64,000 bases of DNA from Rhizomicrobium sp. (GTDB taxonomy: Bacteria; Pseudomonadota; Alphaproteobacteria; Micropepsales; Micropepsaceae), in NCBI GenBank assembly GCA_037200045.1, contig JBBCHM010000002.1, positions 669,241 through 733,240 of the forward strand, read 5' to 3'. Numbering within the stretch: the first letter of the stretch is position 1; the number at the start of each line of letters is the position of its first letter. The notes under the pieces were generated by a model. That model was not told where the DNA came from, did no database searches, and was given only the letters and a program-made list of their open reading frames with translations. The translations under genes and the position numbers were made by a program. This document shows positions 4,171 through 20,773 of this stretch, piece by piece.

Positions 4171-4602
4171 TCAATCGTCCATGCTGTGGGGATCGACCTC
4201 GCGTATCGGCAGATCCCAGTGGTTCAGGGTCAGTTCCCACCGCCTCTGCTCCTCGCGCTCCAGCGTCGTTTTATCGGGAAAGAGCTGACGTTGAACTTCC
4301 CGCTCATGCGTGGAGGCATTGTAGTCGGGATATGTGATGACGATCCGGTAGTCCCAACGCGAATCCTCGCTGGTGTGCAGACCCGGCCGGTCGACGATGT
4401 AGTTCGTGACATAGCCGAGCTGCTTTTCGCGATCGAGAATGGCGATCTGGTATTTCTGGAAGATCTTCCACCATTCGGCCTGGTGTCCGTATTGGATCCG
4501 GTAGACCCATTCCACCTGGTACGGCTTGGCGTCCTGAGCGCGCCCCGTGGCCGTGAGCGCCAGCAGGGCGACGCAAGCGGTCATCAGCGTTCTTCGATAC
4601 AT
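4171..4602 (-). CDS. Conserved-looking hypothetical periplasmic protein
   Basis: AAGGAGG RBS upstream of ATG 4602; signal peptide MYRRTLMTACVALLALTATGRAQD; aromatic-rich mature part (EDSRWDYRIVITY). Confidence 0.75.
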   Translation of the reverse strand: MYRRTLMTACVALLALTATGRAQDAKPYQVEWVYRIQYGHQAEWWKIFQKYQIAILDREKQLGYVTNYIVDRPGLHTSEDSRWDYRIVITYPDYNASTHEREVQRQLFPDKTTLEREEQRRWELTLNHWDLPIREVDPHSMDD

Positions 4603-4658: not shown

Positions 4659-7013
4659 CTATTCCACATGCGCGTCGAATGTGACGCCGAACGACCTGGG
4701 ATCGCCGAGCACGCCGACGGCCGGCGTGATGGCCGACGCGGCGCCGACGCCGATGAGGTAGCGCTGGTCGGCGAGATTCTTGGACCAGAACAGCAGGGAG
4801 TATTTCCCGTCGGTCGTGCGCACGCCGATGCCGAAATTTGTCAGCCCATAGGCATCCTGCCACCCATAGCTCGAATAGGAATTGTAGACCGAGACCTTGG
4901 AGTGGAACGTCTGATTCAGATAGGTGAAGCCGGTGAAATCGTCGTCCAGCGGCACTTCGTAGTTGATGTTGAGCTGGGCGTTCCACAGCGGCGCGCCGGG
5001 AAGCTGCCTGCCGGAGAGGTCCACGGACTTCGTGATATTGGTGAGTTCGATCGGCGCCGGCGCGTCGACATAGGAAACATAGGTCGCGTTGTTGTAGGCG
5101 CCGCTAAGCGAGATCGTCAGGTTGTCGAGCGGCGCATAGGTCGTCTCCAGCTCGATGCCGCGCTGGCGCACGCGTGCGGCGTTGGTGAGATAGATCCGGG
5201 TCGTGGGTCCGGTGGTCACGGCGGCCGACGCCTGATAGTCGGAGATGTTGTTCCAGTAGAGGTCGAAGTTGGCGATCAGCCGCCCATCGAGCCAAGTCGT
5301 CTTGACGCCTGCCTCGTAGTCCGTCGCGCGTTCCGGCTTGATGATGACGGGGATGCCCGGCGCCGCGGTGGTGTTGACCGCGCCCGACTTCTCGCCATGG
5401 CTGACGGAAAAATAGGCGAAGATGTTGTCGTCGATCTTGTAGGACGGATTGATCAGCCAGGAGACGGAACCGAAATCCTTCTTATCGGCCACGACGAACG
5501 GCCCACCGAACGAGGCGAGCACGGCCGTGCGGTAAGGCGCCAGAGTCGGCGGCAGCGTCGCGCCACCGAAGGAAGAGGCATTGTCCGAGCCCGCCTTGTG
5601 CTCCCAGGTGTAGCGCAGGCCACCGGTGATCGTGGCGGCTTCGGTAATGTGCCAGGTGCCCTGGGCGAAGCCGGCATAGCTGTCGGTCGTGGCGCGGCCG
5701 GACTGGTCGTACTCCACGCCATTGAGGACCGCGGACGGCGCCGTCCGGCTGCCGAGCAGGGCCTCGGATGCGTCCGCGAAGAAGATGTCGCGATCGTTGC
5801 TGAGCACGCGCTCGTGCAACGCGTAGAAGCCGCCCTGATATTCGAAGGTCTGGCCGGTGGGCGAGGCGACGCGCAATTCCTGCGAATATTGCGAAACGTC
5901 GACATCGTAGCCGCCGCGCAGGATCGGGAATGGCGAATAATCGGAGTCGTTGTAGGGCCGGAAGCGCAGGCTGCGGAACGCGGTGATCGAGGTGATTGTG
6001 TGATCGCCGACGTCCAAATCGAACTGGTTGGAGATGCCGTTGACCGAGGAGTGCGTGATCCCCTGCGTGTCCATGTTGGCACCATGCGTCAGATCGAAGC
6101 TCGGCGTATAGCCGAATATGCCCTTGAGGATCGCCGACCAGCCGGCGCGCGGCACGCCGTTGGCGTAGTTCGGATCGGCGACCGGCGGGGTGTAATTGTT
6201 GAGCTCGTCGGTCTGGTTGTGCTCGATGATGAGACGGTCGCGGAAATTGCTGGTCGGCGTGAAGAGGAGCTGGCCGCGCACCGACCACCGGTCGGTGTTG
6301 AGCAGGTGGTCGTCATTGTAGTTGTTCTTGATCCAGCCATTCCCCTTGTCGCCGGAGACGGTGAGCCGGAAAGCCAGTTCGTCGTCGACGATGGGGCCCG
6401 TCACGTTGGCGCGGATCTGCTCCCTGTCATGGTTGCCGTAGGTGAGCGCGACGTCGGCGCCGTAATCGAAGCTCGGCTCCTGGGTCGTGATGACGACGGC
6501 GCCGATGGTGGTGTTCTTGCCCAGCAGCGTGCCCTGCGGCCCGCGCAGGACCTCGACATGGTCTAGATCGACGAAGTCGAACCAGCTGAAGCCGACATGG
6601 GTGAACACAACGTTGTCGACGATCAGACCGACGCCGGATTCGACGCCGTCGAAATTGGCGTTGCCGCCGAGGCCGCGGATCGAAAACTGCGACACGCGCG
6701 TGTTCTGCTGCACGGCGGAGAAGTTCGGGACCTTGTCCGCGTAGTCGGCGATGCGGTCCGCATGTTCGAGCTTCAGATTGCTGCCCGCGATCAGGGAAAT
6801 CGGCAGCGGGACGTCCTGGTTGTTCTCCGCGCGATGCCGGCCGGTCACGACGATCGATTCGATGGTTTCGGGCGGCGCGCCCGCATCGGCCACCGCGATC
6901 GGTCCCGCCGCGCTCCCATTGGCGTTCGCGGCATATGCCCCGGAGGTCACCAAAAGAGCGCTGCCAGCCAGCAGCGCCAGTCGGATGGACGAGAATCTTG
7001 CACCGGAATGCAT
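4659..7013 (-). CDS. TonB-dependent receptor, probably for organosulfur uptake
   Basis: Signal peptide, TonB box ESIVVTG, plug motif VEVLRGPQGTLLGKNTTIGAV, barrel motif ELRVAS; start MHSGARF at 7013. Confidence 0.92.
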   Translation of the reverse strand: MHSGARFSSIRLALLAGSALLVTSGAYAANANGSAAGPIAVADAGAPPETIESIVVTGRHRAENNQDVPLPISLIAGSNLKLEHADRIADYADKVPNFSAVQQNTRVSQFSIRGLGGNANFDGVESGVGLIVDNVVFTHVGFSWFDFVDLDHVEVLRGPQGTLLGKNTTIGAVVITTQEPSFDYGADVALTYGNHDREQIRANVTGPIVDDELAFRLTVSGDKGNGWIKNNYNDDHLLNTDRWSVRGQLLFTPTSNFRDRLIIEHNQTDELNNYTPPVADPNYANGVPRAGWSAILKGIFGYTPSFDLTHGANMDTQGITHSSVNGISNQFDLDVGDHTITSITAFRSLRFRPYNDSDYSPFPILRGGYDVDVSQYSQELRVASPTGQTFEYQGGFYALHERVLSNDRDIFFADASEALLGSRTAPSAVLNGVEYDQSGRATTDSYAGFAQGTWHITEAATITGGLRYTWEHKAGSDNASSFGGATLPPTLAPYRTAVLASFGGPFVVADKKDFGSVSWLINPSYKIDDNIFAYFSVSHGEKSGAVNTTAAPGIPVIIKPERATDYEAGVKTTWLDGRLIANFDLYWNNISDYQASAAVTTGPTTRIYLTNAARVRQRGIELETTYAPLDNLTISLSGAYNNATYVSYVDAPAPIELTNITKSVDLSGRQLPGAPLWNAQLNINYEVPLDDDFTGFTYLNQTFHSKVSVYNSYSSYGWQDAYGLTNFGIGVRTTDGKYSLLFWSKNLADQRYLIGVGAASAITPAVGVLGDPRSFGVTFDAHVE

Positions 7014-7091
7014 CGCACCGGTCGGATGGAATGAAAACACGCGATTTACCCCTACTCTGACTGCCACACAGCACCACGCATGTGCCACTTA

Positions 7092-7115
7092 AAGTCTATC
7101 AACTTAGTATTGTAT
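7092..7115. promoter_or_regulatory. Putative sulfur-regulon operator, site 1 (AAGTCTATCAACTTAGTATTGTAT)
   Basis: Upstream of the TonB receptor; aligns with the 8863-8888 (reverse strand) and 11559-11583 sites as WAKTCTAY-N7-RTAKWGTAT. Confidence 0.55.
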
Positions 7116-7311: not shown

Positions 7312-8757
7312 CTAAATCCCCGCGCCCAGATCGACGAACTCGTCGGCGAGCAACGACCATTGCGGCGGCCGTCCGGCCTGCGTCACGGCAAGCTTCTGAA
7401 CCAGCCGCTCGATCTGGGTGTTGATTTCCGGGATCGCCGTGATCTCCCACCACGCCGGCCGTGTCAGGGGGCCGAGCGCGAAAAGCCAGCGGGAGATATT
7501 GCCGCGTGAATCGAGAACGGCGCTGTCGTCGGTCTCGATGCCGAGACCAAGAGCGTCCGGCAACACAAGGTGTTTGCGGACAAGGTCCGCGAGCAAGGGA
7601 TGCGCGATGGCGGACACATCGCCGCGCGGTCCGGTGCAGTTGAACATACGGGCGGCCCGGAAATGTTCTTGTCCCGCTCCCGGCGTCCCGAACGCGACGT
7701 CGATACCGTCCGGAAACGGCTCGGCGCGACGAATGCGTCCCGCCGCGATGCGAAGCTGGCCGCTTGCCGTCAGATCCCGCAGCCGGCTTGCGACGCGCGG
7801 CGCCATGCGATGGCGAACCGATGTCCAGAGCGTCCGCAGATGCCGGAAGAACTGCAGGCGCTCGGCGCCCGACCAGCCGTGCCAGATTCGCGCGGTCGCG
7901 GGACGCACGGCATCGATCACGCGCTGCCACGGCACGGCTTGCGCTTCGGCCTGCGCAATCGCGGCCCTGACACTGCGCAGCGCCTGCAACGGCGAGACAT
8001 GCCCCGCGTCCATGAACGGTGCCCAGAATCCGCCCGCGGCGTGCGTCGCGGGCACGACGCCATGGCGCGACAGAGCCAGCAGCGGTCCACGGTGGCCGCC
8101 CTCGACCAGCTTCAAGACAACGTCGACCATGGTGAGACCCGTGCCGACCAGCAGCACCGGCGCGGAAGGATCGATGCCGTCGAGCGCGTCCGCCGCCCAG
8201 GGATCGTTCGCCACGGACACATCCGACATCAGTCCGGGAATGGCCAGCGGACTCGCGGGAAGGTTGCCGGTCGCCAATACGATGCTGTCGGCCTTGACCG
8301 TCCGGCCATCGTCCAGGACCACGGCCGGCGTCGGCGAGTCCTCCAACCGGACGGCCTCGGCATGGACGACCTTCAGGCGGGACCGGCCGGCCGCGGCCTT
8401 GCGCGTCAGTGCTTCGAGATAGGCGCCGAATGCGTCCCGCACGACGAAGGCCGACGTAAGATCGCCACCGCTTTCGGCGAGAGCGGCCGTCAGATCGAAG
8501 GACTGGTCCTTCAGCCAGTCCGCAAAGCCCGGTTCCAACCCGATCTCGGCGCGGCTGACCGGGACATTCAACAGGTGGAACGGCGCACAGGCGCCATAGG
8601 CCAGCCCGCGCCCGAGGGCTCGGCGCCGTTCGATGAGGACGATGTCCGCATCCGGCAGACCGCGCAGGGCCTTGAGCGCAAACACCGCCCCGCTGAAACC
8701 GCCGCCCACCACGGCAATCGTTATGCGCGTCGTCGTGGACATATCCTGCACCGTCAT
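7312..8757 (-). CDS. FAD/NAD(P)-binding protein (YdhS-like) with CysE-like C-terminal tail
   Basis: VVGGGFSG, GRGLAY, HLLNVP, LVGTGLTMVD, FNCTGP, LFALGPLTR motifs; ends DEFVDLGAGI-stop. Confidence 0.85.
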   Translation of the reverse strand: MTVQDMSTTTRITIAVVGGGFSGAVFALKALRGLPDADIVLIERRRALGRGLAYGACAPFHLLNVPVSRAEIGLEPGFADWLKDQSFDLTAALAESGGDLTSAFVVRDAFGAYLEALTRKAAAGRSRLKVVHAEAVRLEDSPTPAVVLDDGRTVKADSIVLATGNLPASPLAIPGLMSDVSVANDPWAADALDGIDPSAPVLLVGTGLTMVDVVLKLVEGGHRGPLLALSRHGVVPATHAAGGFWAPFMDAGHVSPLQALRSVRAAIAQAEAQAVPWQRVIDAVRPATARIWHGWSGAERLQFFRHLRTLWTSVRHRMAPRVASRLRDLTASGQLRIAAGRIRRAEPFPDGIDVAFGTPGAGQEHFRAARMFNCTGPRGDVSAIAHPLLADLVRKHLVLPDALGLGIETDDSAVLDSRGNISRWLFALGPLTRPAWWEITAIPEINTQIERLVQKLAVTQAGRPPQWSLLADEFVDLGAGI

Positions 8758-8862
8758 TCCTGTCTCTCAAACACCGGCCGCTGGCCGGTCCCGCAGCACG
8801 CATGCGAAACCCCGGCTTCGGAAATGCATGACGGGTCTGCGCCGTTTGAAGCCATCGACAAG

Positions 8863-8888
8863 ATATACTATATCGTCCTTGTAGACTT
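8863..8888. promoter_or_regulatory. Putative sulfur-regulon operator, site 2
   Basis: ATATACTATATCGTCCTTGTAGACTT in the divergent region between the flavoprotein and the LLM monooxygenase; its reverse complement matches site 1. Confidence 0.55.
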
Positions 8889-9104
8889 AAAGCGCCCCAT
8901 GTCGCTCGCAGCCTCTTCCTTCGCCTCCGACCGCCGCTGGCCGGCCGCACCTTTGTGCCGGCCGACGGACGGATCAAGTCCGAACTGGCGACAACCGCGC
9001 GATCCGACAATGACGGGCTTTTCTGCGATGCGGGCGACACTACTTACAGAACTGGGTGTCCACACACAGGGCGGCATCGCGCCCCGGAAGAAAGAGAGCC
9101 TCCC

Positions 9105-10451
9105 ATGAGCAGTTCGCGGCAGTTGAAGCTTGGCGCCTTCATGCGACCCGTCGGGATCCACACCGCCTGGTGGCTCTATCCGGGCGCCTATCCGGACGCC
9201 AATTTCAACCTGAAGCATCTGGTGCGGTTCACGCAGAAGCTGGAACAGGGCAAATTCGACGCCTTCTTCATGGCCGATCACCTGGCGGTGCTGAACATGC
9301 CGATGTCGGCGCTGAAGCGTAGCGCCACGGTGACCTCGTTCGATCCGCTGACCCTGTTGCCGGCGCTGGCAATGGTGACGGAGCGCATCGGCCTCGTCGC
9401 CACCGCGTCGACGACCTATAACGAGCCCTATCACGTCGCGCGCAAATTCGCCTCGCTCGACCACATCAGCGGCGGGCGCGCGGGATGGAACCTCGTCACC
9501 TCCGGCAACCCGACGGAGGCGTGGAATTTCGGACGGGAGGAGCATTGGGAGCACGACACCCGCTATCGCCGGGCGCGCGAGTTCTTCGATGTCGTGACCG
9601 GGCTATGGGATAGCTGGGCGGACGACGCCTTCATCCGCGACACCGAGAACGCGGTCTATTTCGATCCCGACAAGCTGCACGTCCTCGACCACAAGGGCGA
9701 GTTCCTGAAGGTGCGTGGTCCGCTCAACGTCGCCCGGCCGATCCAGGGCTGGCCAGTGATCGTGCAGGCCGGTGCGTCGGAGGCCGGCAAGCAGATCGCC
9801 GCCGAAACCGCCGAAGTGATCTTCGCCGCCGGCGGAAGGCTGGCCGACGCACAGCGCTTCTATGCCGATGTGAAAGGCCGCCTCGACAGGCTCGGCCGGC
9901 CGCGCGACCATTTGAAAGTTCTGCCGGGCGCGCTGGTTGTTGTCGGAGATTCGGATGCGGAGGCGCGACGCAAGCAGGAATTGCTGGACAGCCTCGTCCA
10001 TCCGGACAGCGGCTTGCCGAACCTGTCGATGCGGCTGGGGACGGACGTCTCCGGTTTCGACCTTGACGGGCCGTTGCCGACGGACCTCCCCGAGACCAAT
10101 GCCAGCCAGAGCGGTCGCCAGGCGCTGATCGACCGCGCGCGGCGGGACAACCTGACCATCCGCCAGCTGGCGCGGATCGTCGGCGCCTATGGCGGGCTTG
10201 CCTTCGTCGGCACGGCGAAGACAATCGCCGACAAGATGGAAGAGTGGCTTTTCAGCGACGCCTGCGACGGGTTCAACATCATGTTCCCCACCGTGCCGCA
10301 GGGCCTGGACGAGTTCGTGGACCAGGTCGTGCCGGAGCTTCAGCGCCGCGGCATCTTCCGGCGCGAATATGAAGGCACCACGCTGCGCGAGAATCTGGGC
10401 TTGCCCCGGCCGGAGAACCGTTTCTTCGCCAAGACGGCCGCCCCGGCGTGA
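9105..10451 (+). CDS. LLM-class flavin-dependent monooxygenase (NtaA/DmoA/SoxA family)
   Basis: KFDAFFMAD, FDPLTLL, TASTTYNEPYHVARKFASLDHISGGRAGWNLVTS, QAGAS motifs; start MSSSRQLKLG at 9105. Confidence 0.92.
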   Translation: MSSSRQLKLGAFMRPVGIHTAWWLYPGAYPDANFNLKHLVRFTQKLEQGKFDAFFMADHLAVLNMPMSALKRSATVTSFDPLTLLPALAMVTERIGLVATASTTYNEPYHVARKFASLDHISGGRAGWNLVTSGNPTEAWNFGREEHWEHDTRYRRAREFFDVVTGLWDSWADDAFIRDTENAVYFDPDKLHVLDHKGEFLKVRGPLNVARPIQGWPVIVQAGASEAGKQIAAETAEVIFAAGGRLADAQRFYADVKGRLDRLGRPRDHLKVLPGALVVVGDSDAEARRKQELLDSLVHPDSGLPNLSMRLGTDVSGFDLDGPLPTDLPETNASQSGRQALIDRARRDNLTIRQLARIVGAYGGLAFVGTAKTIADKMEEWLFSDACDGFNIMFPTVPQGLDEFVDQVVPELQRRGIFRREYEGTTLRENLGLPRPENRFFAKTAAPA

Positions 10452-11545
10452 CGGCCGGCGGGGACGGCCTGACGCGGCGCGCATGGCTCGGTGCGGTGGC
10501 GGCCGGGAGCGTGGCGCTGTCGAGCGCGGTCGAAGCCGCGCCGCCGGTGCATGCGCGCCTGTCGTTGAACGAGAACCCGTTCGGCCCATCGCCGCTCGCG
10601 CGCCGCGCGATCCTGAAGCAGCTTGACGAGGCCGACCGCTATGTCGGCGGCGAGGCGCGCGCCCTGGAAGAACAGATCGCGGCGATCGAAGGGGTGTCCG
10701 CCGACCAGATCATCCTAGGCGAAATCCTCGACGCGCTGGGCCTGCAGCTCGCGCTGGACGGCGGTCCCGGCGGTGAGTTCGTCTATTCCGAGCCCGGCTA
10801 TACCGCGCTGGTCGATGCCGTGGCGCCAGGCGGCGGCGCGGTCGTCGGCGTGCCGCTGAACGATCGGCTGGAGAACGACCTGCCCGCCGTCGCGGCGCGC
10901 ATAACGCCGCGGACGCGCGCGATCTATCTCGTCAATCCGCACAATCCGAGCGGCACGGTCAGCGAGACCGCCGCGTTCAAGGCTTTCCTGCGCGCGGCCG
11001 CCGCGAAGACGACGGTCATCGTGGACGAAGCCTATCTCGAATTCGAGCCGGACTTCGCGGAGCGCACCGCCGTCACGCTGACGCGCGGGGGCGCGAATGT
11101 GATGGTCTTCCGCACCTTCGCGAAAATCTATGGCCTGGCGGGGTTGTCCATCGGCTATGCCGTAGCGCCGAAACCGCTCGCGGCTTCGCTGAAGAAGAAA
11201 GGGCTCGGCGCGCCGCACGAACTTAATCGTCTCGCGCTGGCGGCGGCGTCGGCCAGCCTGCGCGATAGCGGCTGTATCCCCGCGATTCGCGCCAAAGTGG
11301 TGGCCGAGCGCCAGGCCTGGAATACGCTGCTCGACGGCCTGGGTGTCCGCCGCAGCGACTCGCGCGGCAATTTCGTCTTCTTCGAGACGCGCCAGCCCCA
11401 TGAGACCTTTGCCGCCGCCCTGCTGGCCGAGGGCATCGAGATCGCCCGGGCCTTCCCGCCGCTCGACCGCTGGGCCCGCATTTCCATCGGCCTGCCCGAC
11501 GAGAACGCGCGCGCCCGTGCCGCAGTGCGCAAGCTGCTCGGCTGA
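10448..11545 (+). CDS. HisC-like PLP aminotransferase with twin-arginine signal peptide
   Basis: LSLNENPFGPSP, NPHNPSG, VDEAY, RTFAKIYGLAG; N-terminal LTRRAWLG + hydrophobic stretch + VEA; GTGA overlap with the LLM stop. Confidence 0.88.
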   Translation: MTAGGDGLTRRAWLGAVAAGSVALSSAVEAAPPVHARLSLNENPFGPSPLARRAILKQLDEADRYVGGEARALEEQIAAIEGVSADQIILGEILDALGLQLALDGGPGGEFVYSEPGYTALVDAVAPGGGAVVGVPLNDRLENDLPAVAARITPRTRAIYLVNPHNPSGTVSETAAFKAFLRAAAAKTTVIVDEAYLEFEPDFAERTAVTLTRGGANVMVFRTFAKIYGLAGLSIGYAVAPKPLAASLKKKGLGAPHELNRLALAAASASLRDSGCIPAIRAKVVAERQAWNTLLDGLGVRRSDSRGNFVFFETRQPHETFAAALLAEGIEIARAFPPLDRWARISIGLPDENARARAAVRKLLG

Positions 11546-11558
11546 GCAGTTGACTGGA

Positions 11559-11583
11559 CATACTCTATCATTCTGATAGAATA
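11559..11583. promoter_or_regulatory. Putative sulfur-regulon operator, site 3 (inverted repeat TCTATCA-TTC-TGATAGA)
   Basis: Perfect 7-3-7 inverted repeat at 11564-11580 in the AT-rich gap before cysE. Confidence 0.65.
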
Positions 11584-11644
11584 TCAGTAGATGTTGCTGA
11601 GGGCCGCGCCGCGGCCGGCGATGCCGGCCCGCGGACATCACGTC

Positions 11645-12604
11645 ATGAGAGATTCTTCGAAAGTCGCGCTTCGCGAGGAACCCTCCGGATCGTCCGGCGG
11701 CGCCCCGGGCGCGGACGGCGCGGCGAGCCCGCTGAATCTGGACACCGTCGTGGCCGAGCTGCGCCGATCGCGCGAGGTGACGCACAATATTCGCGAGGGC
11801 GGCATCGCCCGTCGGCTTCCGTCCAGCACGGCCATTGCCGGGATCGTCGAAGGACTGTCGGCCGCCCTCTTTCCCACTCATTACGGCCAGCCGGAGCTGA
11901 GCGGCGAGCGGATCGACGGGTTCGTCCGCGGCATGCTGGAAGACACGCTGGTGGCGCTGGAAGAACAGATCCGCCGCGCCCTTCCGCTCGGCGGCGACAC
12001 GGCGGAGCGCGACGCCGCAGATCGCGTGGCGCGCGACATTACGACCGCTTTCGCGGCACGGCTTCCTGCGATCCGCGCCCTGCTCGTGGCCGATCTGCAA
12101 GCGGCCTATGAGGGCGATCCCGCCGCGACGACGGTGACCGAAATCCTGCTCGGCTATCCCGGCATGGTGGCCGTCATCCATTACCGACTGGCGCGCGCGC
12201 TGCATCTACTTGGCGCGACGCTGATCGCCCGGCTGATTTCCAACATCGCCCATTCGCGGACCGGCATCGACATCCATCCGGGCGCCGAGCTCGGCACGAG
12301 CTTCTTCATCGATCACGGCACCGGCGTGGTGATCGGCGAAACCGCCGTCATCGGCGACCGCGTGCGGCTCTACCAGGCCGTGACGCTGGGCGCCAAGCGG
12401 TTTCCCGTCGATCGCGACGGCATTCTGGTGAAGGGCATCGCGCGCCATCCGATCGTGGAAGACGACGTCGTGATCTATGCCGGCGCCACGATCCTTGGCC
12501 GCATCACCATCGGTCGCGGCTCGACCATCGGCGGCAATGTCTGGCTGACGCAAAGCGTGCCGCCGGGAAGCAACATCACACAGGCGCAGACCCGCGATGC
12601 TTGA
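11645..12604 (+). CDS. cysE: Serine O-acetyltransferase (EpsC/SrpH-type)
   Basis: AAYEGDPAA, YPGMVAVIHYRLA, TGIDIHPGA, IDHGTGVVIGETAVIG, YQAVTLGA, RHP hexapeptide region; start 11645 preferred. Confidence 0.9.
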   Translation: MRDSSKVALREEPSGSSGGAPGADGAASPLNLDTVVAELRRSREVTHNIREGGIARRLPSSTAIAGIVEGLSAALFPTHYGQPELSGERIDGFVRGMLEDTLVALEEQIRRALPLGGDTAERDAADRVARDITTAFAARLPAIRALLVADLQAAYEGDPAATTVTEILLGYPGMVAVIHYRLARALHLLGATLIARLISNIAHSRTGIDIHPGAELGTSFFIDHGTGVVIGETAVIGDRVRLYQAVTLGAKRFPVDRDGILVKGIARHPIVEDDVVIYAGATILGRITIGRGSTIGGNVWLTQSVPPGSNITQAQTRDA

Positions 12605-13571
12605 GACCCTGTCCCGTCGCGGCCTGCTTCACGGCGGCGCGGCGCTTGCGCTGACGGCCGTGCCGCTCGCCAGCTGCGGCCGGAACACCGCCGCGCGGGC
12701 CGACACCGTCCGCATCGGGTACCAGAAGGACGGCGTACTCGTCATCGCCAAGCAGCAGAAGCGGCTGGAGCAACACCTCGCCGCGTCGGGGATCGGCAAG
12801 GTCGAATGGGCCGAATTTCCGTCCGGTCCGCCGCTTCTCGAGGCGCTCGCGGCCGGCGGCATCGATTTTGGCGCGACCGGCGACACGCCGCCGATCTTCG
12901 CCCAGGCGTCCGGCACCGACCTCGTCTACGTCGCCGCCGTCCCCGTGCGGGGTCGGAGTTCGGCGATCCTGCTTCCACCCAGCTCGAAAATCTCCCGCAT
13001 CGCGGATTTGAAGGGCGGCAGAGTCGCCTTCACGCGTGGTTCCAGCGCGCATTACTTCGCCGTCTCGGCGCTGCATTCGGCGGGCCTGACTCTGTCCGAC
13101 GTTACGCCGATCTATCTTGCGCCGTCCGATGCAAGGGCGGCCTTCGTGCGCGGCAGTCTCGATGCCTGGTTTATCTGGGACCCCTATTATGCCGATGCGG
13201 AGCGCAACGCCGGCGCGCGGGTCCTATCGAACGCCGAGCCCTTCGTCCACAGCGCCTCGTTCTTCCTGGCGTCAAGGGCCTTCGCCGAACGCAATCCCGG
13301 CGTGGTCCGCGCCATCCTTGACGAGCTGTGCACGGTCGGACAATGGATCGCCGCCAATCGGGCCGCAGCCAGCGAACTGGTCTCGAAGATCAATGGCCTC
13401 GACCTCGCAATCGTCAGCGCGGCGTTCGCGCGGGCGGATTTCGGGATCGTGCCGCTCGACGCCGGAATCATCGCCCGCCAGCAGGACGTGGCGGACGATT
13501 TCGCCCGCCTGGGCATTATTCCACATCCCGTGAAGGTGGCCGACGCCGTGGCGCATCTCGACTGGAAATGA
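12597..13571 (+). CDS. ssuA: Aliphatic sulfonate ABC substrate-binding protein
   Basis: [44 protein letters not shown]; SRR Tat motif and LASC lipobox. Confidence 0.88.
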
Positions 13572-13596
13572 ACCTCTCATCGAAAGCGAACATCCC

Positions 13597-14730
13597 ATGA
13601 CCCAAGACAAGAAACTCAATTTCTTCTGGTTCCTGCCGAGCGCCGGCGACGGCAGCTATCTCGGCTCCGAGGAACTGCGCCGGCCGGCGGATTTCGGCTA
13701 TATGCGCGACATCGCGCTGGCCGCCGACCGCCTGGGTTATGGCGGCGTGCTGCTTCCGACCGGCCATGGCTGCTTCGACGGCTGGACGCTGGCGTCGGCG
13801 CTGGCGCCGCTCACCGAACGGCTCAAATTCCTCGTCGCCCTGCGGCCCGGAATCCTGACGCCGGCGCTCGCCGCAAGGCAGGCCGCCGCGCTGGACCAGA
13901 TTTCCGACGGAAGGCTGCTGCTCAATGTGGTGACCGGCGGCAATCCGACGGAGCTTGCTTATGACGGCCTGTTCCTCGGGCATGACGAGCGCTATGAGCA
14001 GACCGCCGAGTTTCTCACGCTCTGGCGGCGCATCATGGCGGGCGCCCCGATCGATTTCCACGGCAAATACCTTTCGGCGAAGGGCGGCACGCCGCTCGTC
14101 TTCCCGCCGGTGCAGAGGCCGTATCCGCCGATCTATTTCGGCGGCTCATCGCCCGCCGGTGTCGCGGTCGCGGCCGAGCATGCCGATCTCTATCTCACCT
14201 GGGGCGAACCGCCCGCGCAGGTCGCGGAGAAATTCAAGGAAGTGCGCGAGGCCGCGGCAAGGGCCGGCCGCAAAATCCGCTTCGGCATCCGCTTGCACTT
14301 CGTGGTGCGCGAAACCGAAGCCGAAGCCTGGGACACGGCCAATCGCCTCATCAGCCGGCTAACGCCCGAGATCATCGCGACCGCGCAGGCGCGCATCGCC
14401 AAGCGCGTCGAGCAATCGGAAGGCCAGCGCCGCATGGTGGAACTGCACGGCGGCGGCAAGACGGACAAGCTGGAGATCAGTCCCAATCTGTGGGCCGGCA
14501 TCGGGCTGGTGCGCGAAGGCGCGGCGACGGCGCTGGTCGGCGATCCGAAGACGGTCGCCGAACGCCTCCGCGAATACCAGGCCCTGGGCGTCGATACGGT
14601 GATCGGATCGGCCTATCCGCATCTGGAGGAAGCCTATCGCGTCGCGGAGCTGTTGTTTCCGGCCCTCGGTCTTGGCGCCGGTGCCTCCACCATATTCTCA
14701 AGCGATACCAGGGCGCGCGCGGCGGGTTGA
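13597..14730 (+). CDS. ssuD: FMNH2-dependent alkanesulfonate monooxygenase
   Basis: [67 protein letters not shown]. Confidence 0.9.
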
Positions 14731-14737
14731 GAGGCAC

Positions 14738-15523
14738 CTAGCGCGGTGCCACCATGACCTGCACGATTCCGCCGGCGGATATGACGGAACAGTCGACGCG
14801 CCACACCCGCGCGATCCGTTCGGTGGTCAGCACGTCCTGCGGCGCGCCTTCCGCCTCGACGCGGCTATGCGCCAGCACGATCAACCGGTCGGCATAGGCC
14901 GCGGCGAGATTGAGGTCGTGCAGGATCGCCAATACGCCGGCGCCTGCCCGCGCGATGTCGCGCGCCTTGGCGAGAATCGCGTGCTGGTGAAACAGATCGA
15001 GGCTCGATGTCGGCTCGTCGAGCAGCAGGAAACGAGCCCGGCCGTCGGTCAGCGGATCCCACAATTGTGCCAGCGTGCGCGCATAGTGCGTACGATGTAG
15101 TTCGCCGCCGGACAAGGTCCGGCAATCGCGCGCCGCGAACGCGGCCGTCTCGGTGGCAGCCATCGCACCATGCACCGCAGCGCGGTCGGCATCGCGGTTG
15201 GCGCGGCCGCGATGAGGATGACGGCCGAGCTCCACCACGTCCCAGGCGCGGAACGAGAAGGCGAGTTCGGGCGATTGCGGCAGGACGGCGCGCTGCAATG
15301 CGAGGTCCTCGGGCCGCCAGGACGACAAGGCCTTGCCGTTGAGCGTGACGTGTCCCGCTTCCGGCACGATGTCGCCGGAGAGGACTTTCAGAAGCGTCGA
15401 TTTGCCGGCGCCGTTGGGTCCGACGACGGCGGTCACCGTGCCCGGTGGCACCTCGATGGTGACACCGTCGAGAATGCGGCGTGCGCCGGCTCGCACGACA
15501 ATGTCCTGTCCGCGCAGGCTCAT
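14738..15523 (-). CDS. hmuV: Heme ABC transporter ATP-binding protein
   Basis: GPNGAGKST, LSGGE, LAQLW, LLLDEPTSSLD, LHDLNLAAAYAD. Confidence 0.92.
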   Translation of the reverse strand: MSLRGQDIVVRAGARRILDGVTIEVPPGTVTAVVGPNGAGKSTLLKVLSGDIVPEAGHVTLNGKALSSWRPEDLALQRAVLPQSPELAFSFRAWDVVELGRHPHRGRANRDADRAAVHGAMAATETAAFAARDCRTLSGGELHRTHYARTLAQLWDPLTDGRARFLLLDEPTSSLDLFHQHAILAKARDIARAGAGVLAILHDLNLAAAYADRLIVLAHSRVEAEGAPQDVLTTERIARVWRVDCSVISAGGIVQVMVAPR

Positions 15524-16602
15524 GGCGCGGCCTCGCCCAGGCGGCGGCGCAACAGCCAGATGAAGAACGGCGCGCCGAGCGCGCTGGTCACGACGCCGAT
15601 GGGAAGCTCGGCCGGCATGACGAGCAGCCGCGCCGCGACGTCGGCGAGCACGACCAGCAAAGCGCCCAGCAAAGCCGAACCGGGCAGGACGAAGCGATGC
15701 GCCGAGCCGCCCATCAGGCGCAGCAGATGCGGCGCCGCCAGGCCGACGAAGCCGACGATGCCGGTCAGCGCCACGCCGGCACCCACGCCCAGCGCCGTCA
15801 ACAGGATGGTGACGCGGCGGATGGTTTCGACGGATAGACCGAGATGGCCGGCGGCGCTTTCGCCCAGTGCCAGCACGTCATAGCTGCGCAGCAACGGCCC
15901 GAACGCGGCGAGTGCCGCCGCCATCAGGAGCAGCACCGGCCAGATCTGATCCCAGGTCGCGCCGCCGAGGCCGCCCAGGAGCCAGAACGTCAGGGCGCGC
16001 AATTGGGCGTCGCTGCCCAGATAGGTCAGATAGCCGACGATCGCGGTTGTCAGCGCGTTCACGGCAAGGCCCGCGAGCAGCAAGGTCGCTACATCCGTGC
16101 GAGAACGCGAACGGCCGATCGCATAGACCAGGGCCGTCGCCAGAAGCGCGGTGGCAAAGGCCGCCATGGGCAGCGCAAAGGCGCCGTGCATCCATAGCGG
16201 CGCGCTGGCGCCCAGGACGATCCAGCCGACCGCGCCGCAGGCCGCGCCGCCCGACACGCCGATCAGGCCGGGATCGGCCAGCGGATTGCGGAACAGCGCC
16301 TGCAGCGCGGCGCCCGAGACTCCGAGCGTCGCACCGACGCCGAGGCCGAGCGCGACACGCGGCAGGCGGATACTAAAGAGTGCGGCGTTTTCGACGGACG
16401 AGACCGGTATTCCGATGTCGATCCCAAGACGGCCAAGCAGCGCGGCCACGACATGGGAGAAGGGAATCGACAGCGCGCCGACCGTGGCGGCGAGCAGGCA
16501 GGCCGCCGCCAGCGCGCCCGCCAGTCCCGCCAATATAATGTGTCGGCGCAACCGCAGCGGATCACGGACCGGATCGAAAGTACTTTCCGCGACAACCGCC
16601 AT
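15520..16602 (-). CDS. hmuU: Heme ABC transporter permease (FecCD family)
   Basis: IRLPRV, LFRNPLADPGLIG, FWLLGGLG, ELPIGVVTSALGAPFF. Confidence 0.92.
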   Translation of the reverse strand: MAVVAESTFDPVRDPLRLRRHIILAGLAGALAAACLLAATVGALSIPFSHVVAALLGRLGIDIGIPVSSVENAALFSIRLPRVALGLGVGATLGVSGAALQALFRNPLADPGLIGVSGGAACGAVGWIVLGASAPLWMHGAFALPMAAFATALLATALVYAIGRSRSRTDVATLLLAGLAVNALTTAIVGYLTYLGSDAQLRALTFWLLGGLGGATWDQIWPVLLLMAAALAAFGPLLRSYDVLALGESAAGHLGLSVETIRRVTILLTALGVGAGVALTGIVGFVGLAAPHLLRLMGGSAHRFVLPGSALLGALLVVLADVAARLLVMPAELPIGVVTSALGAPFFIWLLRRRLGEAAP

Positions 16603-16607
16603 GGCGA

Positions 16608-17465
16608 TCAGTGCAGCGTCGCGATTGCAGGCGCGTGCAGCGCCGCCGCCAACGCCGCAAGCGCATCGGGCGTGCGCGGCCCAAAGCCCAGCAACAGCAG
16701 CGCATCCATCGCGACGATGCGTCCCGACTGGCCGGCGGGCGTCATCGCGATCTCCGGGCGGGCGCGCAGCGACTCGATGCCGCCCAGCATGCGCACGGCG
16801 TGATCGGCGACGATGATGACATCGGGCTTGAGGTCGATGGCCGCTTCCGGCGTGAGCGGCTTATAGCCGCTGAAGCCGGAAGCGACATTCTGCGCCCCCG
16901 CGAGCGTCAGCATCACATCGGCCGCGGTGTCGCGGCCGGCCGCCATGGCGCCACCGGGCCCCTGCGCCATCAGGAAGACCGCGCGCGGATGGTCGCGGAA
17001 AGCCGCGAGCCGGACCTTCACGCCGGCAAGCGCGGTTCGATATCTGTCTTGCAAAGCTTTGCCGCGGTCTGCGACGCCCAGCGCCTCGGCGATAATCGCG
17101 ATCTTCGCCGGCACGGCGTCCGCGCTATGGGCGTTCGGCACATGGACGATTGGGATGCCCGTGGTGCCGAGTTGCGTCATCGCCGCCGGCGGCCCCGCAT
17201 CCTCCGACGCGAGAATGAGATCAGGCTTGCAGGAGAGCACGCCCTCGGCCGCGAGCGTGCGCAGGTAACCGACCTGCGGCAGCTTGGTGGCCGCCGCCGG
17301 ATAGAGCGAGGTCTGGTCGTCGCAGACGATGCGGCCCTGCTGCCCGAGCGCGAAGACGATCTCGGTCACGTCGCCACCCAGCGTCACGATGCGCCCGGCG
17401 GGCGCCGCCGAAGACGGCGCCGCCACGAGCCACAAAGCGGCCGCAAGGCCGATCGCACGCTTCAT
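16608..17465 (-). CDS. hmuT: Heme ABC transporter periplasmic binding protein
   Basis: Signal peptide; VTLGGDVTEIVFALG, DQTSLYP, QVGYLR (heme-ligand Tyr), GFGPRT; ATG 17465 overlaps the hmuS stop. Confidence 0.92.
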   Translation of the reverse strand: MKRAIGLAAALWLVAAPSSAAPAGRIVTLGGDVTEIVFALGQQGRIVCDDQTSLYPAAATKLPQVGYLRTLAAEGVLSCKPDLILASEDAGPPAAMTQLGTTGIPIVHVPNAHSADAVPAKIAIIAEALGVADRGKALQDRYRTALAGVKVRLAAFRDHPRAVFLMAQGPGGAMAAGRDTAADVMLTLAGAQNVASGFSGYKPLTPEAAIDLKPDVIIVADHAVRMLGGIESLRARPEIAMTPAGQSGRIVAMDALLLLGFGPRTPDALAALAAALHAPAIATLH

Positions 17466-18544
17466 GGAGATACCGGAATGGCGGAGAGGATCGCGCGCCA
17501 CGCTGCAAGTTCCGGCTTGCCGGGCTTGCGGGCCCCGAACAATTGCGTGAAGCAGAAGCCATCCTTGTCGAACAGTTCGAGCGAAGTGACATCGCCGTCC
17601 CGCGTCGGTTTGCGCACGACCCAGGCGGAGGCGATCGCGTCCTCGCGCAGATGCAGGTTGAAGGTCGGATCGAGCACGTTGAACCACGGCCCCATGCGCT
17701 TGAGATTGGTCACCGTGCCGGTATGGATCTGGATGCAGCCGGGATTGCCGACGAACACCATGATCGGCGTCGAAGTATCGTGCGCGGCTTCGAGGACGCG
17801 GGCGAGCGCATCGGGCACGACGGCCCGCGCAAACGAGGAGCCGGCGAGCCGCAAAGCCTGCAGGCGCCCGACTTCGAGGCCCCGCAGCATGCCGAAGAAC
17901 TCATGGGTGTCTTCCAGCGCCGACCATTCGCGGCGCAGGCGTTCGACATCGATCTCGGTATCGGCGCGGTCGCCTTTCGACGCCGGCACGTCCGCGATTT
18001 CGAGCACCGGCGACTGGTCCGCCGCCCGCCAGCTTTCGATCAGCCGGTCGAAGGCCGCGATGTCCGTTGCCGGCTTCTGATAGATCTTGTGAACCGCCGC
18101 GCCATCGGCATCGAAGATCTGCAGCGAGCGGCGCGGGCCGTCGTCGGTCTCATCGATCACCGCGAAGGTGTGGTGCCAGCGCGACGGGAAGATGCGCAGG
18201 TCGATCTGCTCGCCCAACACCAGCCCATGCATCGCATTGATGGTGACGTCCAGATAGGGACCGATCTTCTCGTGCACGCAATGCTCGTTGCGGGTCAGCG
18301 CCATCACCGGGCCGAGGGCGGGGATGTCCTTGACGATGTTCGCCCCGTCGGTGCGAAGACGCGTCGCGCTCGTGCCGACAAGGCTCGCGATCAACTCGCC
18401 TTCACTGACGCGCAGGCGCAGGGCGGCGTCACGCGAACGGAGTTTTCCGCCGGTCCGCTCGTTGAGCTCGTTCCAGGCACTGCGTAGGGTCGCCCCCCAC
18501 AGACGTTTGCCCTTCGTGGGTGCGGCAATTGCGGCGTCGCTCAT
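17462..18544 (-). CDS. hmuS: Hemin-degrading/trafficking factor HemS/ChuS/HmuS
   Basis: RSRDAALRLRVSEGEL, RNEHCVHEK, IDLRIF, DTHEFFGML, MVFVGNPGCIQIH; duplicated HemS domain. Confidence 0.93.
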   Translation of the reverse strand: MSDAAIAAPTKGKRLWGATLRSAWNELNERTGGKLRSRDAALRLRVSEGELIASLVGTSATRLRTDGANIVKDIPALGPVMALTRNEHCVHEKIGPYLDVTINAMHGLVLGEQIDLRIFPSRWHHTFAVIDETDDGPRRSLQIFDADGAAVHKIYQKPATDIAAFDRLIESWRAADQSPVLEIADVPASKGDRADTEIDVERLRREWSALEDTHEFFGMLRGLEVGRLQALRLAGSSFARAVVPDALARVLEAAHDTSTPIMVFVGNPGCIQIHTGTVTNLKRMGPWFNVLDPTFNLHLREDAIASAWVVRKPTRDGDVTSLELFDKDGFCFTQLFGARKPGKPELAAWRAILSAIPVSP

Positions 18545-18568
18545 TCGGTCCTCCGATAACGATCTGTA

Positions 18569-18629
18569 TTGCAATTGACTCGCAATTGCAAAAATGGTGC
18601 ATTGAGATTGCACCTGCGAGTCATTCGCA
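18569..18629. promoter_or_regulatory. Fur-alpha-type iron boxes in the hmuS/hmuR divergent promoter
   Basis: TGCGAGTCATTCGCA at 18615-18629 (TGCGA-N5-TCGCA) and TTGCAATTGACTCGCAA at 18569-18585; resemble the alphaproteobacterial Fur box as recalled. Confidence 0.65.
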
Positions 18630-18655
18630 GTCAAGCCAGATTGAGGGGCTCTTTA

Positions 18656-20773
18656 ATGCGTAATTTTCGCCGTTTGCTTTTGACGTCCGTTTGTTTTCTG
18701 ACCGGCGCGGGAGCGGCCTGGGCCGATGGCGCCGCGCCGCTGCAGGTGGCGTCGGTCGAAACCGTAACGGTGACGGGAACGCGCAATCCGACAGCGGTCG
18801 CGACCTTTCCCGGCATGGTGGATGTGCGCGATTACAACGAGATCCAGGCGGACATCCCGTCGACCGTGTCGGACCTGTTTTACGGGATGCCGAACGTCCA
18901 GTTCGTCGGCGGTCCGCGGCGCACCGGCGAGAGCCCCAGTATTCGCGGCCTGGGCGGCCAGGACGTGTTGGTACTGGTCGATGGCGTTCGCCAAAGCTGG
19001 ACGTCCGGCCATGACGGCCAGTTCTTCCTCGATCCGTCGCTGCTCGCCGGCGTCGATGTCGTGCGCGGCCCCAATTCGTCGCTCTATGGTTCCGGGGCGC
19101 TGGGCGGCGTGATCGCGTTTCGCACGGTCGACGCCTCGGACCTGCTCGGCGCGGGCCTGACCGCCGGCGTCCGCGTGGCGCTCGGCTATCAGGGCGTCGA
19201 CGACGAGTTCCTGCGCATGGCGACGGGCTTCACCCATATCGGCGATCTCGACGTCATCGGCAGCATCGGCGAACGCAGTTCCGGCAACATCAAGCTCGGC
19301 TCCGGCGCTTCGCTCGCCGCGGACGACGACGTCGTCACCGGTTTCGGCAAGATCGGCTACGATTTCGGCGATGGGCTGAGCGTCAAGGTATCCTATCAGG
19401 GCTATCAGGACGACGCGGTCGAACCCGACGACGGCCAGGGCGTTTCGACTGGGGCGCCGATCGACAAGCGCGTCACCAATCAGCAGGTCTCCGGCGAAAT
19501 CGACTGGAAGCCCTCCGGCACCGACCTCGTCGATCTGCACCTGACGCCTTATCACGTCGAAGGCAGGGTCCTCGAAATCGATCCGGCGACGGGCGATCGC
19601 GCGGTACAGGACATCAAGACCGACGGTTTCAGCGCCGACAACCGCATTCCCTTCGCCTTCGCCAACGTTTCCGGCCTCTTCACCTTCGGCGGCGAGTGGT
19701 ATCAGGACAGCCAAGTCGGCACCGACAGCGCCGGGGTCGGCGGCGTGCGCTCCGGCGTGCCGAACGGCAAGGACGAGTTCTGGGGCGCCTTCGCGCAGAT
19801 CGAAGCCACTGTCGATCATCCGCTGGGCGCGCCCGGCAAGCTGACGCTGATCCCGGCCGTGCGTTACGATTCGTTCAGTTCCTCCTCCACGGGCAATCCC
19901 GACCTCAACAAGAGCGCGACCTCGCCCAAGCTTGCCGCAACCTACGCGCCGGTCGACTGGTTCTTCATCTTCGGCAATGTCGGCGAGGCGTTCCGCGCGC
20001 CGGGAATCAACGAACTCTATCTGAGCGGTATTCACTTCGAAGTGCCGCACCCGATTCTGCCCGGCGTTTCGGTGGCGAACACGTTCCAGCCCAATCCCAA
20101 TCTCAAGCCGGAGACGTCGAGATATTGGGAGGCCGGCGCCGGCGTGTTATTCAACGATGTCGTCACAGCGGGCGACACGCTGCGCGGCAAGGCCTCGTAC
20201 TGGAATCAGAACGTCGACGACTTCATCGATCTCAGCGTTTTCACGCCGCCGACCTTCTACAGCATGGGTTGCTTCACGCCGCCGACCTTCCTGGCCGGCT
20301 GCAATGTCGGCCAGACGACTTCGGTCAATGTCGATGCGAGTCTGCACGGCGCCGAGGTGGAAGCGATCTACGACGCGCCGCGTTGGGCGCTGCAGGCCGA
20401 CTACGGCACGATCAGCGGCAAGGAACGCGGCACGCCTTTCGCGCTGAACTCGCTGATGCCCGATATCGTCTCGCTGATCGCGACGCTCAAAATTCCGGAA
20501 GTGGACAGCGCCTTGAACCTGCGCGTGCAAAACGCGGGCTCGTTCCACAAGAGCTACGATCCGGCCAGCAACGATCCGCCGACCGACGACCGCAAGGGCT
20601 ACACGCTGCTGGACCTCTATGCGAGTTGGCAGCCCAAGGGCAGGCTGCAGGGGTTCAGGGTCGACGCGGGTATCGACAATCTGTCGGACGCCGATTACGC
20701 GCCCTATGCCCAGGGCGTGAGCGCGGCGGGACGCAACATCAAGATCCTCGCCAGCTATAGCTACACATGGTGA
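18656..20773 (+). CDS. hmuR: TonB-dependent heme/hemoglobin receptor
   Basis: ETVTVTGTR, GHDGQFFLDP plug (His), VVRGPNSSLYGSGALGG, FRAP and NPNLKPE motifs, C-terminal YSYTW. Confidence 0.93.
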   Translation: MRNFRRLLLTSVCFLTGAGAAWADGAAPLQVASVETVTVTGTRNPTAVATFPGMVDVRDYNEIQADIPSTVSDLFYGMPNVQFVGGPRRTGESPSIRGLGGQDVLVLVDGVRQSWTSGHDGQFFLDPSLLAGVDVVRGPNSSLYGSGALGGVIAFRTVDASDLLGAGLTAGVRVALGYQGVDDEFLRMATGFTHIGDLDVIGSIGERSSGNIKLGSGASLAADDDVVTGFGKIGYDFGDGLSVKVSYQGYQDDAVEPDDGQGVSTGAPIDKRVTNQQVSGEIDWKPSGTDLVDLHLTPYHVEGRVLEIDPATGDRAVQDIKTDGFSADNRIPFAFANVSGLFTFGGEWYQDSQVGTDSAGVGGVRSGVPNGKDEFWGAFAQIEATVDHPLGAPGKLTLIPAVRYDSFSSSSTGNPDLNKSATSPKLAATYAPVDWFFIFGNVGEAFRAPGINELYLSGIHFEVPHPILPGVSVANTFQPNPNLKPETSRYWEAGAGVLFNDVVTAGDTLRGKASYWNQNVDDFIDLSVFTPPTFYSMGCFTPPTFLAGCNVGQTTSVNVDASLHGAEVEAIYDAPRWALQADYGTISGKERGTPFALNSLMPDIVSLIATLKIPEVDSALNLRVQNAGSFHKSYDPASNDPPTDDRKGYTLLDLYASWQPKGRLQGFRVDAGIDNLSDADYAPYAQGVSAAGRNIKILASYSYTW

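Follow-up and report, generated by a model that had tools for sequence, protein, structure and literature searches.

A predicted exported, sulfur-sparing pyridoxal phosphate enzyme of the HisC fold in a sulfur-gene locus of Rhizomicrobium sp.

Introduction

A 64,000-nucleotide stretch of the alphaproteobacterium Rhizomicrobium sp. (Micropepsaceae; GenBank assembly GCA_037200045.1, contig JBBCHM010000002.1, positions 669,241 to 733,240 of the forward strand; hereafter the window) contains a gene for a predicted exported enzyme related to histidinol-phosphate aminotransferase (HisC) and belonging to the pyridoxal 5'-phosphate (PLP) enzymes. The gene is joined to that of a flavin-dependent monooxygenase and is followed by sulfur-assimilation genes, while a flavoprotein gene and the gene of a TonB-dependent receptor lie on the opposite strand (Table 1). 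Here, we describe a computational analysis of this enzyme and its relatives. Judged from its sequence, the enzyme is a distinct, mis-annotated variant of the exported HisC-like PLP enzymes, set apart by the sparing of sulfur amino acids, pairing with outer membrane receptors and a remodelled phosphate pocket. We think it likely, with some room for doubt, that it is a periplasmic PLP enzyme made under sulfur scarcity and acting on an imported amino-organosulfur compound.

Results

The gene and its product

The initial annotation had described an intact fold-type I PLP enzyme with its lysine in a FAKIYG motif, coupled to a luciferase-like monooxygenase gene and placed among sulfur genes, and this description was borne out. 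The open reading frame (ORF) is free of stops over 365 residues and matches Pfam PF00155 at 115 bits (cut-off 19.7). The start codon, GTG (10448-10450), overlaps as GTGA with the terminal TGA of the monooxygenase gene (10449-10451), and between it and the nearest in-frame stop on its 5' side there is no ATG, GTG or TTG. Directly 3' of the ORF lie a cysE-like gene, ssuA and ssuD. An AlphaFold2 model built from 144 sequences has a mean predicted local distance difference test score (pLDDT) of 94.2, with low confidence at residues 1-30 only. Foldseek places the model closest to 3ly1 (template modelling score, TM, 0.82; the best PDB match) and to the HisC/CobD group (TM 0.73-0.83).

Table 1. Features of the PLP enzyme gene and of the surrounding part of the window
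Feature	Position	Strand	Evidence
Exported HisC-fold PLP enzyme gene (predicted export; 365-aa precursor)	10448..11545	+	Stop-free translation, profile matches, AlphaFold2 model
Predicted twin-arginine translocation (Tat) signal peptide, residues 1-30 (n-region, TRRAWLG, h-region A12-V28, VEA|A)	10448..10537	+	Motif, homologue conservation, low pLDDT
Twin-arginine motif T9-R-R-A-W-L14	10472..10489	+	R10/R11 conservation
G91-E92, site of family-specific 4-residue deletion (GxGS PLP-phosphate loop gone)	10718..10723	+	Alignment; loop role from PMC9309667
Lys226 codon, Schiff-base lysine (RTFAK; FAKIYG motif)	11123..11125	+	Present in 80/80 loci
Ser234 codon, Lys+8, the class I PLP-phosphate arginine position	11147..11149	+	Arg here in no family member
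NtaA/DmoA-family FMN monooxygenase, 448 aa from ATG 9105	9105..10451	+	Profile match; translationally coupled to PLP enzyme
Promoter-like region with AT-rich palindromic element (GATATACTATATC), 5' of monooxygenase-PLP enzyme pair	8850..8890	+	
TonB-dependent receptor, nearly without sulfur amino acids	4659..7088	-	One internal Met and no Cys, counted from start 7013
FAD/NAD(P)-binding PF13454 flavoprotein, divergent from monooxygenase gene	7312..8757	-	Same family beside PLP enzyme homologues in L017, L020, L055
45-bp spacer 3' of PLP enzyme gene: TTGACT and overlapping AT-rich palindromes (CTATCAttcTGATAGaaTATCAG)	11546..11590	+	
cysE/SrpH-like serine acetyltransferase, ssuA, ssuD	11591..14730	+	Sulfur-poor products, 1.5-4.7 percentile of genome

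Relation to HisC and PtaA

The best NCBIfam matches of the enzyme are all models of the HisC type, and all fall below their cut-offs: hisC (TIGR01141) at 194.3 of 276.55 bits, PRK09105 at 186 of 444, and PtaA (NF051461) at 165.6 of 500. The initial view that the enzyme differs from the housekeeping HisC is supported by a separate, true hisC elsewhere in the genome (G000:C1:2378148-2379200), which scores 308.5 bits. Assignment to PtaA fails because every curated model scores below its cut-off. A true PtaA (genome G119, locus L021) reaches 681.6 bits and falls outside the family on a long branch of the tree. The PtaA model aligns with the enzyme from residue 9 on, and so includes the twin-arginine motif. 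No nonribosomal peptide synthetase (NRPS) or pvd genes are present within the window, the rest of the genome not having been searched for them. By its sequence, then, the enzyme is neither HisC nor PtaA, and its current annotation as 'histidinol-phosphate transaminase' is almost certainly wrong.

With HisC (TIGR01141; PDB 1fg3/1gex, 4wbt and 8bj1) the enzyme shares the fold (TM 0.73-0.82), the catalytic Lys, Asp, Asn and Tyr, and two arginines (334 and 344 here) that in HisC hold the phosphate or carboxylate of the substrate. It differs in having a signal peptide where HisC has an N-terminal arm of the Y-x-P-G type, in the loss of the loop, Ser and Arg of the phosphate pocket, and in the sequence NPHNP. 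The best sequence match among solved structures (E 2e-41), 3ly1 of Pectobacterium atrosepticum, was deposited by structural genomics as a 'putative histidinol-phosphate aminotransferase' and belongs to the broad HisC-like group nearest to the exported proteins; it is only 30% identical, however, and retains TAGSSEG, FSK and AGMRVGY, and with them a normal phosphate pocket.

PtaA of Pseudomonas is the sole exported HisC-like protein that has been studied (PMC6206403). It is exported together with its cofactor and is often encoded away from the pathway that it serves (Ringel et al. 2017, cited in the review PMC6206403), and it occurs in species that make no pyoverdine (PMC6206403). Like the present enzyme, it combines a HisC-like class I PLP fold with a Tat signal in place of the HisC arm, and its substrate also travels through a TonB receptor, as would that of the present enzyme. 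In contrast, PtaA has not lost the phosphate-pocket Ser and Arg (RTFSK...AGARLG) and serves pyoverdine, and thus iron, whereas the present family is depleted of sulfur and tied to sulfur genes.

Distribution of the family

The family is widespread among soil bacteria, with members in 239 stretches of a species-representative genome collection and in more than 1800 protein clusters from metagenomes. A HMMER scan of 1.84 billion cluster representatives returned 797 clusters at E<1e-30. The hosts belong to the Alpha- and Gammaproteobacteria, Acidobacteriota, Verrucomicrobiota, Planctomycetota, Myxococcota and Bacteroidota, and there is no curated model for the family. The clade has an SH-like support of 99, with cluster P0133 as its sister. 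The gene is accessory and patchily distributed (a search of 60 other genomes from its taxonomic family recovered it in one), and the gene tree cuts across taxonomy, with Rhodanobacter and Dyella inside an acidobacterial group and Solimonas among alphaproteobacteria.

The view of the initial annotation that periplasmic HisC-like enzymes are rare did not survive this survey. Most of the approximately 100 nearest full-length clusters at 50% identity bear twin-arginine leaders, which indicates that exported HisC-like proteins form a large group. In one family member, P0127 (695 aa), an extra N-terminal domain of about 360 residues is fused to the HisC-like part, which comprises residues 360-687.

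Export signal

Residues 9-15 of the precursor read T-R-R-A-W-L-G and are followed by 17 uncharged, moderately hydrophobic residues (mean Kyte-Doolittle value 1.58) and then by V28-E29-A30|A31. The marks of a Tat substrate, an RR motif, a run of at least 13 uncharged residues, an AxA-type site and a Tat system in the genome, are thus all present; with 214 bits, the genomic tatC is well above its cut-off (132.7). The twin arginines are no chance occurrence: R10 and R11 show at least 90% conservation among 20 homologues (60-90% identity), while the flanking residues of the signal drift, as is usual in signal peptides. The possibility that the true start lies downstream of the twin arginines is countered by homologues in which ATG codons precede RR by 5-9 codons and so place the start upstream of the motif. 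The mature protein would have about six residues before RLSLNEN, the arm of about 30 residues found in cytoplasmic HisC being gone.

To follow the signal through the family, 80 genome loci from several phyla were fetched with the family alignment and their N-termini were read. A motif of the form [S/T/D/N]RRxx[L/W/F] stands at the equivalent position in 58 of them. Ten others (L045, L055, L061, L062, L071, L074, L076, L078, L090 and L099), forming a single clade from Opitutaceae, Planctomycetota, Bacteroidota and one member of the Myxococcales, have a classical Sec leader without RR. Nine are leaderless (phototrophic Bradyrhizobium, Rhodopseudomonas, Tardiphaga and a metagenome-assembled genome of the Xanthobacteraceae), and three are ambiguous. 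Since the Sec forms make up one clade and the leaderless forms are nested in the tree, both states are derived. The exchange of a Tat for a Sec signal with retention of a leader is strong evidence for function outside the cytoplasm. The export proposed from the single sequence is in this way upheld by a signal that is conserved across the family and replaced in one clade, and we regard export of the enzyme from the cytoplasm as very probable. For members of the Sec-exported clade, this B6 enzyme would have to fold and load its cofactor after export.

Sulfur-sparing composition

The connection with sulfur proved stronger than the initial annotation, which had drawn it from neighbouring genes, had assumed, since the whole family and the receptors next to it are depleted of methionine and cysteine. 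The window enzyme contains one internal Met and one Cys (Met+Cys 0.55%), placing it at the 1.3 percentile of 2294 likely genes in its genome (median 2.85%); the low-sulfur tail of this distribution also holds SsuA, the acetyltransferase and the TonB receptor. The family members at the 80 loci have a median of 0.6%, and Met and Cys are lacking altogether from 16 cores. Among the 97 nearest exported relatives, by comparison, the median is 3.7% and only one protein falls below 1% (Mann-Whitney p about 1e-27, uncorrected for relatedness). Because these relatives are exported and yet normal in sulfur content, export itself does not explain the depletion. The enzyme is therefore sulfur-sparing relative both to its proteome and to its paralogues, and composition served here as a predictor of function that is independent of gene neighbourhood.

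Pairing with TonB-dependent receptors

The neighbours of the 80 loci were identified by unbiased ORF clustering and Pfam. This replaced a single-query tblastn with neighbour proteins (Rrf2, TauD, YDMC and others), which gave few matches and was either too insensitive or limited by clade-specific genes. In 19 of the loci the gene immediately upstream, in the same orientation, encodes a TonB receptor, and in 29 there is a receptor gene within 7 kb. The paired loci come from Steroidobacteraceae, Rhodanobacteraceae, Acidobacteriota, Opitutaceae and Brevundimonas. The adjacent receptors fall into four clusters, and the tree shows nine or more switches between the paired and unpaired states. The median Met+Cys content of these receptors is 0.13%, often a single residue in 800-1190, whereas the window genome has 36 receptor-like ORFs with a median of 1.08%. 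The idea that the adjacent receptors form one orthologous group was rejected: besides their division into four clusters, the window receptor is only 23-36% identical to them.

Five of the 36 receptor-like ORFs in the window genome (G000 C1:287004, C1:662021, C1:683451, C2:1206397 and window 4659-7088) have about 0.15% Met+Cys in their last 650 residues. From their composition, these five sulfur-free proteins look like a set of sulfur-starvation receptors.

Gene neighbourhood and a candidate operator

The monooxygenase matches TIGR03860 at 562 bits, and its nearest solved relatives are YtnJ, MoxC/YxeK, nitrilotriacetate (NTA) monooxygenase and DszA. Several of these enzymes cleave C-S bonds of cysteine conjugates or sulfones. 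The initial annotation had treated its coupling to the PLP enzyme gene as a clue to function; this use of it was given up, as the junction occurs in Rhizomicrobium relatives only, a gene resembling DOPA-dioxygenase can intervene, and the partner that recurs across phyla is the TonB receptor. The intervening gene (PF08883) overlaps the start of the PLP enzyme gene in relatives (L001 7643-8011, L003 7619-8014 and L020 7601-8008); in L001 it stands between the monooxygenase and PLP enzyme genes, and the window contains no PF08883 gene. An all-periplasmic pathway including the DOPA-dioxygenase-like protein was ruled out, as that protein has no signal peptide.

Close homologues of the PLP enzyme (63-90% identity) are encoded among genes for Rrf2, TauD, the same acetyltransferase, a PF13454 flavoprotein, YDMC, an SDR and an esterase, and further among DOPA-dioxygenase-like, receptor, sulfatase and rhodanese genes, those of a SrpI-type encapsulin and its cysteine desulfurase, and those of cystathionine-type enzymes. 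Cysteine synthase is likewise among the neighbours recorded for the window and the homologues taken together. The low Met/Cys content, the clustering with ssuA, ssuD, tauD and cysE-type genes and the dedicated outer membrane receptor are shared with the ssu, tau and ats systems of sulfate starvation. A TonB receptor, SftP, is presumably part of the sulfate-ester locus of Pseudomonas putida. No exported PLP enzyme was found in the described ssu, tau and ats systems, in the literature searched and to our knowledge, and a literature search for a sulfur-regulated exported aminotransferase returned nothing relevant.

In three loci (L005 9151-13740, L018 10420-13876 and L078), homologues of the PLP enzyme stand beside genes for a SrpI-type encapsulin, a long cysteine desulfurase, a rhodanese and a SrpH-like acetyltransferase, the gene set of the sulfur-starvation nanocompartment. 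In 11 Bradyrhizobium loci a retropepsin-like protease is encoded directly upstream of the enzyme. It was rejected as a partner, since it is not depleted of sulfur and its occurrence in one lineage points to synteny.

An AT-rich palindrome of about 24 bp, TACTnTATC-N(4-6)-GATAnAGTA, occurs upstream of the receptor gene, of the monooxygenase-PLP enzyme pair and of cysE-ssuAD (window 7091-7114, 8865-8888 and 11560-11583). In a 15-mer comparison of the three intergenic regions GC-rich chance matches dominated, and the AT-rich element alone was informative. There are few other sites in the genome (G000 C1:286800, C1:284112, C1:592066 and C2:1254438), one of them just upstream of another sulfur-free TonB receptor ORF (C1:287004). 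Its presence in three promoters of the locus fits a single sulfur regulon, of which the palindrome is probably the operator. An Rrf2 regulator gene adjoins tauD in relatives, and no Rrf2 gene is found in the window.

A remodelled phosphate pocket

The catalytic core of the family is conserved. Lys226, Asp193, Asn166, Tyr196, Tyr118, Tyr65, Arg334 and Arg344 are all retained, and the Schiff-base lysine is present at every one of the 80 loci. The residues that would hold the phosphate of the cofactor have fared differently. In aspartate aminotransferase of E. coli, the PLP phosphate is bound by G103/T104, S245 and R254, and R254 is approximately 90% conserved among class I aminotransferases (PMC9309667). 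In the present family a four-residue deletion (LG----EILD) relative to HisC and the other exported relatives has removed the GxGS loop. FSK has become F[A/G/S/D]K, with no fixed residue ahead of the lysine. At position Lys+8, 99% of the outgroup have Arg, but all 80 loci encode S, A, P, G, D, E or Q instead. The combination of Gly-Ser/Thr loop, Ser at Lys-1 and Arg at Lys+8 by which a PLP-phosphate pocket is recognized is consequently absent. The NPNNP of HisC and exported relatives has in addition become NPHNP. Thr at Lys-3 and Tyr65 are kept in the remodelled pocket, and R261, K249, H165, H318 and W291 are residues specific to the family. Of these, R261, K249 or H165 may be candidates for holding the phosphate. 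The family thus represents a natural experiment in cofactor binding, a clade of class I enzymes in which the catalytic core has been kept while the arginine, serine and loop that hold the phosphate have been discarded.

Discussion

Proposed role

Organic compounds are the main sulfur source of soil bacteria, and in the described routes for their use that we know of (ssu, tau, ats and msu/sfn) all chemistry other than that of the sulfatases is cytoplasmic. The present family suggests a PLP step in the periplasm that is linked to an outer membrane importer. A role of the enzyme in sulfur starvation seems to us quite probable, and its expression would be expected to be induced by sulfur limitation. 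We envisage that, when sulfur is scarce, a dimeric HisC-fold PLP enzyme would be made together with the receptor, would fold in the cytoplasm, and would be exported by the Tat pathway with cleavage of the signal near VEA|A. A TonB-dependent receptor of sulfur starvation would bring an amine-bearing, anionic organosulfur compound across the outer membrane, and the enzyme would work on this compound in the periplasm. The freed sulfur could then be taken up and fixed by the products of the adjoining ssu/cysE-type genes.

The two retained arginines suggest a substrate amine that also carries an anionic group. The substrate of HisC is an amino-alcohol phosphate ester, of which amino-alcohol sulfate esters, aminosulfonates such as taurine and cysteate, and cysteine conjugates would be the sulfur analogues. 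The enzyme might remove the amino group by a PtaA-like transamination, which would need an amino acceptor in the periplasm, or it might eliminate a sulfur leaving group (sulfite, sulfate or thiol), which needs no co-substrate and would be more economical in a compartment without 2-oxo acids. Elimination has precedents in other PLP folds, namely cysteate sulfo-lyase and ethanolamine-phosphate phospho-lyase. We rate the chances of a transaminase and of a lyase as nearly even. The identity of the acceptor is unsettled even for PtaA (PMC6206403).

A more specific proposal, which we put forward as speculative and rather doubtful, is that receptor and enzyme form a two-gene sulfur-scavenging module distributed across phyla, in which a sulfur-free TonB receptor would supply an exported PLP-type lyase that strips sulfite, sulfate or thiol from an imported amino-sulfonate, amino-alcohol sulfate ester or cysteine conjugate with no 2-oxo-acid partner. 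The B6 cofactor would be held in a non-canonical manner, possibly as unphosphorylated pyridoxal; this last element is proposed because of the remodelled phosphate pocket and because the Sec-exported members would load their cofactor after export.

Several observations weigh against a periplasmic enzyme of sulfur scavenging. With three canonical contacts to the PLP phosphate lost, and Asp or Glu at the arginine position in some members, normal binding of PLP, and hence catalysis, is not assured. The nine members without a signal show that the chemistry is not tied to the periplasm. In the window itself, the receptor gene lies 3.4 kb from the PLP enzyme gene, on the opposite strand and in a different operon. 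Finally, distant members (50-60% identity) can occupy loci without obvious sulfur genes, among peptidases, ribose-5-phosphate isomerase and P450; the low sulfur content of both the enzyme and its receptor is the sole clue there.

Alternative explanations

The enzyme could instead be a periplasmic transaminase of the PtaA type that tailors a siderophore or other secondary metabolite, its function being in iron and its sulfur-gene neighbours incidental. PtaA, the one studied precedent, is not confined to pyoverdine producers (PMC6206403), and its model aligns through the Tat motif of the present enzyme. Siderophore loci typically include an adjacent receptor gene, the window has a heme-uptake cluster 3 kb downstream, and some Bradyrhizobium members are found near a receptor and a PepSY_TM gene. 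We nonetheless judge this explanation unlikely, given the PtaA score of 165.6 against 500, the position of the true PtaA (L021) on a long branch outside the clade, direct neighbours that are ssu, cysE and tauD genes, and the lack of NRPS and pvd genes in the window; the sulfur depletion of the enzyme and adjacent receptors, moreover, fits stress for sulfur rather than iron. The same depletion runs through the whole family but not through its nearest exported relatives; it is a specific sign of sulfur limitation and so speaks against a general periplasmic transaminase that deaminates imported amino acids or peptides as a means of scavenging nitrogen. Genes for peptidase M1 and aminopeptidase P do accompany the receptor-enzyme pairs of Terracidiphilus and Rhodanobacter, but ssu, tau, cysE and Rrf2 genes surround the members of the closest subclade, and we give nitrogen or amino-acid scavenging a small chance of being correct.

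Two further explanations question the export or the catalysis of the protein. Sulfur-poor isozymes are a known starvation strategy, and the protein might be a cytoplasmic, sulfur-sparing spare HisC or aromatic aminotransferase whose RR stretch is no working signal, as its best curated matches to HisC models and the nine signal-less members would allow. This is highly improbable in view of the conservation of the RR motif, uncharged core and AxA-type site, the Sec signals of one clade, the absent HisC arm, HisC-model scores that are uniformly below cut-off, and the nested, derived position of the signal-less forms. It is also conceivable that the phosphate pocket has decayed and that the family consists of catalytically dead binding proteins; the deleted Gly-Ser loop, the variable residue before the lysine and the replacement of the Lys+8 arginine in every member are what such a pseudo-enzyme might display. 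Across phyla, however, little or no variation is seen in the Schiff-base Lys, the Asp at the pyridine nitrogen, the Asn and Tyr at O3', the stacking Tyr or either of the substrate arginines, a pattern not expected of a decayed site, and we consider loss of catalysis very unlikely.

Other features of the window

The cysE/SrpH-like ORF (window 11591-12604) could start at ATG 11591 or at ATG 11645, and the catalytic domain of its product begins only at about residue 138-166, leaving a long N-terminal extension. Just downstream of the sulfur-free receptor gene, the window encodes a 143-residue protein with a Sec-type leader (4171-4602, minus strand), a homologue of which (53% identical) is encoded near the PLP enzyme gene of an acidobacterium (L098 2536-3039). 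Right after ssuD, and on the opposite strand, lies a complete heme-uptake cluster (window 14738-20773) comprising an hmuV/U/T-like ABC transporter, a HutX-like protein and a TonB heme receptor.

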